A DNA stretch of 18,794 bases from a virus. The translations under genes and the position numbers were made by a program. Position 1 is the stretch's first letter. Each line of letters starts with the position of its first letter. The stretch is from the UHGV virus genome UHGV-0072536; one strand, written 5' to 3'. Below the pieces are notes generated by a model that did no database searches, was not told the origin of the DNA, and saw only the letters and a program-made list of their open reading frames with translations. Below are positions 3,753-18,794 of the stretch, one piece after another.

Positions 3753-3994
3753 TACTACGTCATCGTACTGGCCCGGCATTCCAGGCCATAAAGGACAGTC
3801 TGGCAGTGGGACTAAATGCACTGACGCTGACGGATATTACCAAAAATGCAACGTATGGCGTTGAGATAGAAAGTCTGGTGCTGGAGATAAATGCACCGGC
3901 ATCATCATAAAAAGTGAGCCAGTCAAATGGAAGGTATCGTTAAACTCACCGGTAGTGTCAGTGGATCGTCTGAGACGCTTGCATGAGTTATCAG

Positions 3995-12154: not shown

Positions 12155-13454
12155 TCTCCCGCATATTGCCAGCATGGCCTTTAATGAGCCGCTGATGCTT
12201 GAACCCGCCTATGCGCGGGTTTTCTTTTGTGCGCTTGCAGGCCAGCTTGGGATCAGCCGCCTGACGGATGCAGTATCCGGCGACAGCCTGACTGCCGGAG
12301 AGGCACCCGCGGCGCTGGCGTTATCCGGTGATGATGACGGACCACGACAGGCCCGCAGTTATCAGGTCATGAACGGCATCGCCGTGCTGCCGGTGTCCGG
12401 TACGCTGGTCAGCCGGACGCGGGCGCTGCAGCCGTATTCGGGAATGACCGGTTACAACGGCATTATCGCCCGTCTGCAACAGGCTGCCAGCGATCCGATG
12501 GTGGACGGCATTCTGCTGGATATGGACACACCGGGCGGGATGGTGGCGGGAGCATTTGACTGTGCTGACATCATCGCCCGTGTGCGAGACATAAAACCGG
12601 TATGGGCGCTGGCCAACGACATGAACTGCAGTGCAGGTCAGCTGCTTGCCAGCGCCGCCTCCCGGCGTCTGGTCACGCAGACCGCCCGGACAGGCTCCAT
12701 CGGCGTCATGATGGCTCACAGTAATTACGGTGCTGCGCTGGAGAAACAGGGCGTGGAAATCACGCTGATTTACAGCGGCAGCCATAAGGTGGATGGCAAC
12801 CCCTACAGCCATCTACCGGATGATGTCCGGGAAACACTGCAGTCCCGGATGGATGCAACCCGCCGGATGTTTGCACAGAAGGTGTCGGCATATACCGGCC
12901 TGTCCGTGCAGGCTGTGCTGGATACCGAGGCTGCAGTGTACAGCGGTCAGGAGGCCATTGATGCCGGACTGGCTGATGAACTTGTGAACAGTACCGATGC
13001 GATCACCGTCATGCGTGATGCACTGGATGCACGTAAATCCCGTCTCTCAGGAGGGCGAATGACCAAAGAGACTCAATCAACAACTGTTTCAGCCACTGCT
13101 TCGCAGGCTGACGTTACTGGCGTGGTGCAAGCGACGGAGGGCGAGAACGCCAGCGCTGCGCAGCCGGACGTGAACGCGCAGATCACCGCAGCGGTTGCGG
13201 CAGAAAACAGCCGCATTATTGGGATCCTCAACTGTGAGGAGGCTCACGGACGCGAAGAACAGGCACGCGTGCTGGCAGAAACCCCCGGTATGACCGTGGA
13301 AACGGCCCGCCGCATTCTGGCCGCAGCACCACAGAGTGCACAGGCGCGCAGTGACACTGCGCTGGATCGTCTGATGCAGGGGGCACCGGCACCGCTGGCT
13401 GCAGGTAACCCGGCATCTGATGCCGTTAACGATTTGCTGAACACACCAGTGTAA
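12135..13454 (+). CDS. C: Head maturation protease / scaffold C
   Basis: 439 aa from GTG at 12135 with SD agaggaggag; the track ORF 12000..13454 is an upstream extension; matches lambda gpC (VTAELRNLPHIASMAFNEPLML...). Confidence 0.9.
12849..13454 (+). CDS. nu3: Scaffolding protein Nu3, in-frame internal start within C
   Basis: ATG at 12849 in the C frame (MDATRRMFAQ...), sharing the C stop, as for lambda nu3; 201 aa. Confidence 0.75.
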   Translation: MDATRRMFAQKVSAYTGLSVQAVLDTEAAVYSGQEAIDAGLADELVNSTDAITVMRDALDARKSRLSGGRMTKETQSTTVSATASQADVTGVVQATEGENASAAQPDVNAQITAAVAAENSRIIGILNCEEAHGREEQARVLAETPGMTVETARRILAAAPQSAQARSDTALDRLMQGAPAPLAAGNPASDAVNDLLNTPV

Positions 13455-13463
13455 GGGATGTTT

Positions 13464-13796
13464 ATGACGAGCAAAGAAACCTTTACCCATTACCAGCCGC
13501 TGGGCAACAGTGACCCGGCTCATACCGCAACCGCGCCCGGCGGATTGAGTGCGAAAGCGCCTGCAATGACCCCGCTGATGCTGGACACCTCCAGCCGTAA
13601 GCTGGTTGCGTGGGATGGCACCACCGACGGTGCTGCCGTTGGCATTCTTGCGGTTGCTGCTGACCAGACCAGCACCACGCTGACGTTCTACAAGTCCGGC
13701 ACGTTCCGTTATGAGGATGTGCTCTGGCCGGAGGCTGCCAGCGACGAGACGAAAAAACGGACCGCGTTTGCCGGAACGGCAATCAGCATCGTTTAA
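13464..13796 (+). CDS. D: Head decoration protein D
   Basis: 110 aa from [12 protein letters not shown]; near-identical to lambda gpD. Confidence 0.95.
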
Positions 13797-13816
13797 CATT
13801 ACCCTTCATCACTAAA

Positions 13817-13838
13817 GGCCGCCTGTGCGGCTTTTTTA
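13817..13838 (+). terminator. GC hairpin plus T-tract between D and E (terminator/attenuator-like)
   Basis: Stem gccgc/gcggc with loop ctgt, followed by tttttt, 13 nt before the E start. Confidence 0.4.
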
Positions 13839-13850
13839 CGGGATTTTTTT

Positions 13851-14876
13851 ATGTCGATGTACACAACCGCCCAGCTGCTGGCGGCAAATGAGCAGAAATT
13901 TAAGTTTGATCCGCTGTTTCTGCGTCTCTTTTTCCGTGAGAGCTATCCCTTCACTACGGAGAAAGTCTATCTCTCACAAATTCCGGGACTGGTAAACATG
14001 GCGCTGTACGTTTCGCCGATTGTTTCCGGTGAGGTTATCCGTTCCCGTGGCGGCTCCACCTCTGAATTTACGCCGGGATATGTCAAACCCAAGCATGAAG
14101 TGAATCCGCAGATGACCCTGCGTCGCCTGCCGGATGAAGATCCGCAGAATCTGGCGGACCCGGCTTACCGCCGCCGTCGCATCATCATGCAGAACATGCG
14201 TGACGAAGAGCTGGCCATTGCTCAGGTCGAAGAGATGCAGGCAGTTTCTGCCGTGCTCAAGGGCAAATACACCATGATCGGTGAAGCCTTCGATCCGGTT
14301 GAGGTGGATATGGGCCGCAGTGCGGCGAACAACATCACGCAGTCCGGCGGCACGGAGTGGAGCAAGCGTGACAAGTCCACGTATGACCCGACCGACGATA
14401 TCGAAGCCTACGCGCTGAACGCCAGCGGCGTGGTGAATATCATCGTGTTTGACCCGAAAGGCTGGGCGCTGTTCCGTTCCTTCAAAGCCGTCAGGGAGAA
14501 GCTGGATACCCGTCGCGGCTCTCATTCCGAACTGGAGACAGCGGTAAAAGACCTGGGCAAAGCGGTGTCCTATAAGGGGATGTATGGCGATGTGGCCATC
14601 GTCGTGTATTCCGGACAGTACGTGGAAAACGGCGTCAAAAAGAACTTCCTGCCGGACAACACGATGGTGCTGGGTAACACTCATGCACGCGGTCTGCGCA
14701 CCTATGGCTGTATTCAGGATGCGGATGCATTGAGTGAGGGTATTAATGCGTCTCCCCGTTATCCGAAAAACTGGAAGACATCCGGCGATCCGGCGCGAGA
14801 GTTCACCATGATTCAGTCAGCACCGCTGATGCTGCTGGCTGATCCTGATGAGTTCGTGTCCGTTCAACTGGCGTAA
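13851..14876 (+). CDS. E: Major capsid protein E
   Basis: 341 aa starting MSMYTTAQLLAANEQKFKFDPLFLR; near-identical to lambda gpE. Confidence 0.95.
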   Translation: MSMYTTAQLLAANEQKFKFDPLFLRLFFRESYPFTTEKVYLSQIPGLVNMALYVSPIVSGEVIRSRGGSTSEFTPGYVKPKHEVNPQMTLRRLPDEDPQNLADPAYRRRRIIMQNMRDEELAIAQVEEMQAVSAVLKGKYTMIGEAFDPVEVDMGRSAANNITQSGGTEWSKRDKSTYDPTDDIEAYALNASGVVNIIVFDPKGWALFRSFKAVREKLDTRRGSHSELETAVKDLGKAVSYKGMYGDVAIVVYSGQYVENGVKKNFLPDNTMVLGNTHARGLRTYGCIQDADALSEGINASPRYPKNWKTSGDPAREFTMIQSAPLMLLADPDEFVSVQLA

Positions 14877-14917
14877 TCATGGCCCTTAGGGGCCATTTTC
14901 TCTCTGTGGAGGAGTCC

Positions 14918-15313
14918 ATGACGAAAGATGAACTGATTGCCCGTCTCCGGTCGCTGGGTGAGCAACTGAACCGTGATGTCAGCCTGACGGGGACGAAAGA
15001 AGAACTGGCGCTCCGTGTGGCAGAGCTGGAAGAGGAGCTTGATGACACGGATGACGGAGCCGGTCAGGACTCGTCTGTCAGCCCGGAAAATGCGCTGACC
15101 GGACATGAAAATGAGGTGGTATCAGCACAGACGGATACCGTGACTGATACGGCTGCTCTGGTCACGGTTGTGGCACTGGTGACGCTGCATACCGATGCAC
15201 TTCACGCCACGCGGGATGAACCTGTGGCATTTGTGCTGCCGGGAACGGCGTTTCGTGTCTCTGCCGGTGTGGCAGCCGAAATGACAGAGCGCGGCCTGGC
15301 CAGAATGCAATAA
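14918..15313 (+). CDS. FI: DNA-packaging protein FI
   Basis: 131 aa from MTKDELIARLRSLGEQ with SD ggagg; conserved N- and C-terminal parts match lambda gpFI, central linker divergent; a perfect palindrome atggccctta/ggggccat lies between E and FI. Confidence 0.9.
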   Translation: MTKDELIARLRSLGEQLNRDVSLTGTKEELALRVAELEEELDDTDDGAGQDSSVSPENALTGHENEVVSAQTDTVTDTAALVTVVALVTLHTDALHATRDEPVAFVLPGTAFRVSAGVAAEMTERGLARMQ

Positions 15314-17424: not shown

Positions 17425-17847
17425 ATGTTCCTGAAAACCGAATCATTTGAACATAACGGTGTGACCGTCACGCTTTCTGAACTGTCAGCCCTGCAGCGCA
17501 TTGAGCATCTCGCCCTGATGAAACGGCAGGCAGAACAGGCGGAGTCAGACAGCAACCGGAAGTTTACTGTGGAAGACGCCATCAGAACCGGCGCGTTTCT
17601 GGTGGCGATGTCCCTGTGGCATAACCATCCGCAGAAGACGCAGATGCCGTCCATGAATGAAGCCGTTAAACAGATTGAGCAGGAAGTGCTTACCACCTGG
17701 CCCACGGAGGCAATTTCTCATGCTGAAAACGTGGTGTACCGGCTGTCCGGTATGTATGAGTTTGTGGTGAATAATGCCCCTGAACAGACAGAGGACGCCG
17801 GGCCCGCAGAGCCTGTTTCTGCGGGAAAGTGTTCGACGGTGAGCTGA
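17425..17847 (+). CDS. G: Tail assembly chaperone G
   Basis: 140 aa; matches lambda gpG; contains slippery heptamer gggaaag (17823-17829) near its 3' end. Confidence 0.9.
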   Translation: MFLKTESFEHNGVTVTLSELSALQRIEHLALMKRQAEQAESDSNRKFTVEDAIRTGAFLVAMSLWHNHPQKTQMPSMNEAVKQIEQEVLTTWPTEAISHAENVVYRLSGMYEFVVNNAPEQTEDAGPAEPVSAGKCSTVS

Positions 17848-18140
17848 GTTTTGCCCTGAAACTGGCGCGTGAGATGGGGCGACCCGACTGGCGTGCCATG
17901 CTTGCCGGGATGTCATCCACGGAGTATGTCGACTGGCACCGCTTTTACAGTACCCATTATTTTCATGATGTTCTGCTGGATATGCACTTTTCCGGGCTGA
18001 CGTACACCGTGCTTAGCCTGTTTGATGCGCCGCGCGATAAATGCACTCTATCTTGTGCGATAAATGGCATCCACGCGGCGTTTCATTATTTGAAAAAGAA
18101 TTACATTTCAGGTTGCGTTATGACAGTCCCAACAGGGTGA
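17823..18140 (+). pseudogene. T: T part of the G-T -1 frameshift product, truncated: lambda-like only to about 18025, then unrelated sequence to a stop
   Basis: -1 frame after gggaaag reads GKVFDGELSFALKLAREMGRPDWRAMLAGMSSTEYVDWHRFYSTHYFHDVLLDMHFSGLTYTVLSLF (lambda gpT-like), then diverges (DAPRDKCTLSC...) and stops at 18140; no H gene follows. Confidence 0.7.
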
Positions 18141-18673
18141 TAGCGGTAGATCGTTGACAGTCCAATATCATAGATAATTGCCAGCCGCTTTCTGTCATAC
18201 CCTTTCTGGAGCAATCTTGCGATCTGCTCATGCTGCTCCTTCGTCAGTTTCGGGCGACGTCCTCCAACTCTTCCTTGTGCTCGCGCAGCAGCCAGTCCTG
18301 CCAGCGTGCGCTCAACTATCAGTTCACGCTCCATTTCTGCCAGTGCACCCATCATATGAAAAAAGAACCTTCCCATCGGAGTGCTGGTATCGATTGAATC
18401 CGTCAGACTGCGAAAATTGACACCTTTTGCGCGTAGCTCTTCTGTGAGAGCAATGAGGTGTTTCATTCTTCTACCCAACCGATCCAGCTTCCAGACCACC
18501 AATGTATCCCCTCTTTTAAGGCACTTTAAAGCGCGTTTCAGGCCTGGTCGTTCCGACTTGGTTCCGCTCATTTTGTCCTCAAAAATCTGTTCACATCCTG
18601 CGCACATTAATGCATTGCGTTGCAAATCTGTGTTTTGGTCATTTGTTGACACACGTATGTAGCCAATCAGCAT
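18101..18673 (-). CDS. pin: Serine DNA invertase, Pin/Gin/Hin/Cin family
   Basis: 190 aa from MLIGYIRVSTNDQNTDLQRNAL (catalytic Ser in RVST); strongly similar along its length to E. coli e14 Pin as recalled; the track ORF start at 18787 is an upstream extension. Confidence 0.9.
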   Translation of the reverse strand: MLIGYIRVSTNDQNTDLQRNALMCAGCEQIFEDKMSGTKSERPGLKRALKCLKRGDTLVVWKLDRLGRRMKHLIALTEELRAKGVNFRSLTDSIDTSTPMGRFFFHMMGALAEMERELIVERTLAGLAAARAQGRVGGRRPKLTKEQHEQIARLLQKGYDRKRLAIIYDIGLSTIYRYHPVGTVITQPEM

Positions 18674-18727
18674 TAAAAATACTCCCTTTTGAGTGGTTAA
18701 AGTACTGAGATAATGTGGGGAGGATTT

Positions 18728-18753
18728 GAGAGATAAACGTTGGTTTGGGGGAA
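18728..18753 (-). repeat. Candidate gix/pix-like crossover site upstream of pin
   Basis: Minus-strand sequence ttcccccaaaccaacgtttatctctc resembles the 26-bp crossover sites of Gin/Hin/Cin/Pin invertases (TTCC..AAACC....TTT); lies 55-80 bp upstream of the pin start codon. Confidence 0.45.
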
Positions 18754-18794
18754 GGCTCTGCACTGCCTGTTGGTGTGCCTGTTCCATGGCCCAC

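Follow-up and report, generated by a model that had tools for sequence, protein, structure and literature searches.

A Gin/Pin-type DNA invertase and crossover site at the tip of a BcepMu-like prophage that very probably interrupts gene T of a lambda-like prophage

Among the closest described systems is the G segment of phage Mu, in which the Gin invertase neighbours the tail-fibre genes close to an end of a transposable phage, and inversion between two sites exchanges the C-terminal part of tail-fibre protein S; this system has two cassettes and the genes U and U′, and com and mom lie beyond gin. The PinE/P segment of e14 in E. coli K-12 likewise has an invertase with a silent stf fragment beside it, with two tfa genes (tfaP and tfaE), and e14 itself is a defective prophage that is fixed at icd and not transposable. 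The Min system of p15B uses a Din-family invertase and more than two crossover sites to shuffle several tail-fibre C-terminal cassettes. In gin, hin, and cin, a recombinational enhancer is located in the 5′ end of the invertase gene. BcepMu, a Burkholderia phage of the genus Bcepmuvirus, has an acyltransferase gene after the tail-fibre gene and neither an invertase nor cassettes; its relative Escherichia phage PhiKM is represented by a partial record that stops short of the invertase-side end. Mu-like phages have been found before within mobile elements, Stx phages among them: in STEC CC119, 6 out of 10 such phages had mobile elements as their insertion sites (PMC10132054), and the Stx-phage records LC727881 and LC727895 from that study carry the annotation 'region of the inserted Bacteriophage Mu-like phage'.

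We compared these systems with an 18,794-nucleotide stretch of viral DNA (UHGV-0072536; hereafter the window, meaning the whole stretch that was analysed). A preliminary description, made from the sequence alone, had placed a Pin-family invertase facing the window edge, and we found there a gene for a Gin/Pin-family serine DNA invertase of 190 aa (18101..18673, minus strand), whose protein starts MLIGYIRVSTNDQ. The gene lies inside a mechanical open reading frame (18101–18787, minus) with its start toward the window edge. The start was taken at 18673 because the 38-codon extension of the longer frame spans the crossover site and Gin has no equivalent of it; the 228-aa frame starting at 18787 was thus rejected as the gene. 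The protein has the layout of Din-family invertases, with an N-terminal resolvase domain (Pfam Resolvase, E 8e-51), the catalytic serine at position 9 in the motif YIRVSTNDQ (RVSTNDQ), and a C-terminal helix-turn-helix (HTH_7, E 1e-12). Residues 1–181 matched the structures of Mu Gin (4M6F/3UJ3) with an E value of about 1e-93, and the match to gamma-delta resolvase was far weaker (E 1e-32). A reading of the protein as a cointegrate resolvase was dropped, as it is far nearer Gin than the resolvases. Global alignments over the full length gave 138/190 identities to Gin and 139/190 to e14 PinE (73% each), and the protein is 100% identical to RefSeq WP_000904922.1, which is annotated in many E. 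coli genomes.

The first 120 nt of the gene (18554..18673, minus strand), the position predicted for a Fis-dependent recombinational enhancer by identity to gin and pinE, are identical to gin at 92/120 bases (77%) and to pinE at 96/120 (80%), levels for which coding constraint could account by itself. Residue 114 of the window invertase is Met, and Val occupies this position in both solved Gin chains, which we take to be those of a Fis-independent mutant; Met at 114 would then be the wild-type residue. The window invertase may likewise depend on Fis and such an enhancer.

The preliminary description had also pointed to a sequence resembling Gin/Hin/Cin/Pin crossover sites upstream of the invertase, and comparison with real sites read from the Mu and e14 records bore this out. 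Crossover site A (26 bp, 18728..18753) consists of an outer half GAGAGATAAACG, a TT core (18740–18741), and an inner half GGTTTGGGGGAA; the outer half agrees with the inner half at just 4/12 bases. The closest site is that beside pinE in e14, which reads TTTTCATAAACG TT GGTTTGGGAGAA in MG1655 and is followed by GGCTCT as in the window; the two sites have the same TT core and agree at 20/26 bases, or at 26/27 over ATAAACGTTGGTTTGGGNGAAGGCTCT. A 27-nt e14 probe matched the window once, with 1 mismatch, and matched 0/200 shuffled sequences. Mu gixL and gixR read TTATCCAAAACC-TC-GGTTTACAGGAA and thus share with site A a 26-bp length and a 2-bp core, but they differ in half-site sequence and have a TC/GA core in place of TT/AA. 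In the window, 54 nt separate the invertase ATG from the site, and the gap has the same length in e14 and in Mu (gixR). We regard the observation of an invertase with its site as confirmed because of the e14-probe match, the absence of matches among 200 shuffles, and the shared 54-nt spacing. On these sequence characters, all of which agree with the Din family, the invertase and its site are assigned to the Gin/Pin type.

The window ends 41 nt past site A and holds no second crossover site. Beyond the core, at 18742..18794 (plus strand), it enters a promoterless tail-fibre C-terminal cassette, of which the first 17 codons are present (GLGEGSALPVGVPVPWP); such cassettes are complete in related loci. 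The 41 nt after site A are identical in the window and in the genomes K56-43, p11B, and C7; other cassettes differ from them at 3 bases. By these three diagnostic bases the cassette is of the type that we call cas1, and we judge the window to represent the state with cas1 beside the invertase.

In complete genomes that encode the identical invertase, we found three sites with a common inner half GGTTTGGGGGAA and a TT core. Site A lies beside the invertase; site B, in the same orientation, lies between the promoterless cassettes cas1 and cas2; and site C is inverted and lies inside the tail-fibre gene, 2.1 kb from A. We built the predicted inversion products in silico and then searched for them among complete genomes. 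The arrangement pin-A-Sv170-tfa was present in 301 complete genomes, pin-A-cas1-B-cas2 in 89, and the junction Sc-C-cas2 in 87; these counts overlap somewhat, and cas1 is missing entirely from some genomes. A×C inversion of p11A, over the 2129 bp between cores, gave p11B with 0 mismatches in 7300 bp and with breakpoints exactly at the site A core; the two are ST131 isolates taken in series from the blood of a single patient (bioRxiv 10.1101/616961). B×C inversion of C7 gave C9, both being water isolates, with 0 mismatches in 7330 bp. Because these two sibling pairs differ solely by an exact A×C or B×C inversion, elements with this identical invertase and site carry an active three-state switch of the fibre C-terminal domain. 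The earlier proposal that the invertase flips tail-fibre C-terminal segments thus holds for the siblings in which it could be read directly. The switch has three sites and three cassettes where Mu has two of each.

Of the three cassettes, Sv170 alone has a tail-fibre assembly gene, tfa, behind it (Caudo_TAP; L009 3326–6937, L010 3326–6937, and L013 2856–6467), in contrast to U and U′ in Mu and to tfaP and tfaE in e14. In fusions of cas1 or cas2 to the fibre's constant part, tfa is in the wrong orientation, and in most complete genomes Sv170 and tfa are silent. Because only one cassette has a tail-fibre assembly gene, the cas1 and cas2 fibres may not be functional. The p15B Min system has six sites and many isomers, as against three sites and three fusion states here. 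The length of the tail-fibre gene differs between genomes (543 aa in L002 versus 667 aa in p11B); the length of the fibre shaft therefore varies.

The tail-fibre cassettes and inverted partner site that had been predicted past the window edge are present in related sequences, at 2.1 kb in the complete genomes and at 1.6–3.4 kb in L005 (GCA_009892545.1, WXMA01000027.1), a public contig that equals the window over 10,966 bases except at 4. One of the four differences lies far upstream, and the other three lie just after the crossover site and are the cassette-diagnostic bases. Past the position of the window edge, L005 contains cassettes with a Collar domain, a tail-fibre assembly gene, the fibre constant region, and Mu/P2-type baseplate genes, together with four inverted copies of the site 1.6–3.4 kb beyond the edge. 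Parts of the scaffold are joined through single Ns at 12626 and 14103, and a second, partial copy of the invertase gene (13595–14152) adjoins a different cassette. These joins suggest that the assembler merged both orientations of an invertible region whose orientations were mixed in the reads. L005 was rejected as a map of cassette order, given the single-N joins and the duplicated invertase fragment, which make the order unreliable beyond about 600 bp past the window. In L005, tandem repeats spaced 168 nt (56 aa) apart occur within the constant part of the tail-fibre gene (14472–15275). The cassette starts form repeats of about 270 nt within the invertible region, and these repeats and possibly mixed orientations explain why short-read assemblies break or are scrambled here.

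Activity in siblings leaves the question of this genome, where the invertase and site could be an inactive relic that flips nothing, as is the case for many pin genes of cryptic prophages. In favour of a relic, the lambda-like prophage that hosts them has itself been disrupted, the L005 assembly is not good enough to place intact partner sites in a trustworthy order, and a simple promoter and terminator scan of 17900–18794 found no terminator and no promoter-like site upstream of the invertase. We nevertheless consider a relic quite unlikely, since the protein matches WP_000904922.1 at every residue and site A has the same sequence as in elements that differ by exact inversion between siblings. 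Moreover, the window and L005 have a common junction and yet differ at the three cassette-diagnostic bases after the site, and the 5′ end of the L005 invertase gene is joined to two different cassettes, which suggests that both states were present in that sample.

On its other side, the invertase gene abuts a lambda-like tail operon. The tail assembly chaperone gene G (17425..17847, plus strand; Pfam Phage_TAC_2, E 9e-62) is followed, by way of a G-T slippery site GGGAAAG read in the sequence at 17823–17829 (plus strand), by the 5′ ~45% of a lambda-like gene T (17829..18022, plus strand), which breaks off after about 65 of its 144 codons. Of the 73 positions in the Pfam Phage_tail_T profile, only 1–36 are covered, and the full-length gpT domain is absent. 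The truncated T frame stays open across another 39 codons of inserted DNA, as far as 18140, and gene callers report the result as a 103-aa protein (17829–18140) that convergently overlaps the 3′ end of the invertase gene by 40 nt (18101–18140). The intact T of strain SCU-105 diverges from the window after ...AGCCTGTTT. In 3692 complete genomes, matches to the lambda-like part run up to window position 18023, and matches to the invertase module start at 18015–18023; the break falls at 18022/18023. In a three-way alignment of an intact T, an invertase locus, and the window, the switch occurs at ...AGCCTGTT|TGATGCGCCGCGCGATAAATG, that is, ...CCTGTT|TGATGCG.

The DNA beyond this break is the end of a transposable prophage, of which the window holds 772 bases (18023–18794), starting 5′-TGATGCG at 18023. 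The terminal 78 bp (18023..18100; 5′-TGAT...) contain GATAAAT motifs at positions 14 and 37 from the tip (18036–18042 and 18059–18065), which are probably transposase-binding repeats. In other genomes the identical terminus adjoins unrelated host genes, including codA, fabI, ydiV, an FHIPEP pseudogene next to lafU, irp2, folM, and others. The element of K56-43, located between codA and codB, spans 38,223 bp. It has genes for a transposase of the rve type with an AAA+ partner, for Gam and Mor, and for a Mu-type portal and a P2/Mu-type baseplate (Pfam rve, AAA_22, Phage_Mu_Gam, Mor, and Portal_Mu); none of these genes lies in the window. The K56-43 transposase shares 68% identity with that of BcepMu and 98.6% with that of PhiKM, which is classified in Bcepmuvirus, and Mor, Gam, the Mu-type portal, and the P2-type baseplate are common to these phages. 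Both ends of the element begin TGAT, the far ends in K56-43 and p11A being in inverted orientation; the K56-43 far end has inverted GATAAAT motifs at 14 and 37, like the invertase-side end, and the p11A far end has the motif at 14 only. Target duplications of 6 bp flank the element in both genomes checked (CGGGTA in K56-43 and TTAGGA in p11A), as compared to the 5-bp duplication of Mu. Element ends and duplications are located at L001 9007, L003 ~29445, L009 ~2605, and L011 ~2718. The element boundary, together with the ends and gene content in relatives, thus shows that the invertase gene is the final one of a transposable phage and ends 78 bp short of the phage tip, where Mu instead has com and mom beyond gin. 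PV468777.1 (L006), a GenBank 'complete phage genome' with the identical invertase, was not used, as it is a prophage prediction padded with chromosomal genes. This record combines sequence from a P2-like prophage with about 16 kb of chromosomal genes (dmsABC, pflB, serC, and aroA) and the Mu-like prophage end.

As read from the near end of the element in this lineage, T appears to have been cut by transposition of a Mu-like prophage, because the break lies at the element's terminal TG, the same terminus borders unrelated genes elsewhere, and relatives have 6-bp duplications. From the duplications in K56-43 and p11A, the target hexamer in the window would be CCTGTT (18017..18022). The preliminary description had read the junction differently, as a fibre-inversion module recombined onto a lambda head/tail backbone to give a chimeric phage, or as a deletion fusing neighbouring prophages. 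In keeping with such an event, the two modules abut without a spacer, and the far side of the junction is outside the window. The lambda-like and invertase parts are spanned together in 0/5426 complete E. coli genomes, so a simple insertion with both ends is not seen directly; exact-pattern scans of genome contigs and metagenome contigs gave no match to the near junction or to the predicted far one, and these scans are uninformative on the far junction because the near junction is absent from them too. Against a chimera or deletion, the break coincides with the exact tip of an element whose same end borders unrelated genes elsewhere and which is flanked by 6-bp duplications; the same-junction contig L005 continues into Mu/P2-type baseplate genes pointing toward the invertase, not lambda tail genes; and a chimeric phage would lack half of T and the tail tape-measure context. 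We therefore abandon the graft and the deletion as very unlikely and retain the insertion of a transposable prophage. That the T/invertase junction is an assembly chimera without biological meaning is hardly credible, since, although the window ends inside a repeated cassette start, a typical short-read contig break, and L005 shows scaffolding artefacts, the exact 103-aa T-fusion frame occurs in 48 blocks of an assembly collection, with 25 contigs read (most of 50–200 kb) and the T junction accordingly counted in at least 25 public contigs, and the junction lies at a precise transposon tip, not within a repeat.

On the whole, we consider it very probable that the window carries the end of a ~38-kb BcepMu-like prophage in gene T, equipped with a Gin/Pin three-site fibre switch. 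A ~38-kb BcepMu-like (Bcepmuvirus-type) prophage would have transposed into T of a lambda-like prophage, and the cut in T would separate the lambda-like head and proximal tail genes from the remaining tail operon. The invertase would pair site A, or the direct site B, with the inverted site C inside the tail-fibre gene, cut at the central TT/AA dinucleotide, and invert the DNA between the paired sites. Inversion would select which C-terminal receptor-binding cassette (Sv170, cas1, or cas2) joins the constant part of the fibre, giving a three-state host-range switch of the Mu G-segment kind, in which a change of cassette would be expected to alter host range. On the far side in this lineage, we predict the prophage end ...ATCA, the duplicated CCTGTT, and then the rest of T, TTTCAGCGATCC; the prophage would then be complete here, with the remainder of T at its far end, unless a later deletion followed the insertion.

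For the proposed insertion in T, the Mu-like phages already found inside mobile elements, including Stx phages, provide a precedent. The Sp18-like Mu-like phages of STEC resemble this case in that a transposable phage sits inside a lambdoid prophage, but their invertase is a different one, 77% identical, and the target proposed here is T, a tail gene, in a lambdoid prophage where we saw no stx gene. A more far-reaching reading would make this an undescribed three-site, three-state Din-family system, acquired by Bcepmuvirus-type phages of E. coli, in which two of three cassettes work without a cognate chaperone, flips occur within a patient between serial bloodstream isolates, and the insertion in T represents the permanent disabling of a resident lambdoid competitor by another temperate phage; we consider this combination unlikely.

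For annotation, the preferred account means that a "lambda T fused to invertase" marks a transposable phage inside another prophage and not the design of a chimeric phage. The three-state switch of the tail fibre occurs widely among clinical E. coli, ST131 included, and its flipping is visible between sibling isolates, which makes it useful for the study of phage host range; the mechanism itself is textbook and holds little surprise.

Elsewhere in the window, a Q antiterminator gene (842–1663) is followed by three tRNA genes (1807–2056; Met-type CAT, Arg TCG, and Arg TCT). Q followed by tRNA genes is the layout found upstream of stx in Stx phages, and no stx gene was present among the open reading frames scanned between the tRNA genes and the holin gene at 3955. 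Between the tRNA genes and the lysis genes, at 2753–2942, the window also contains a full-length match to the sRNA family STnc100 (RF02076; 132 bits).
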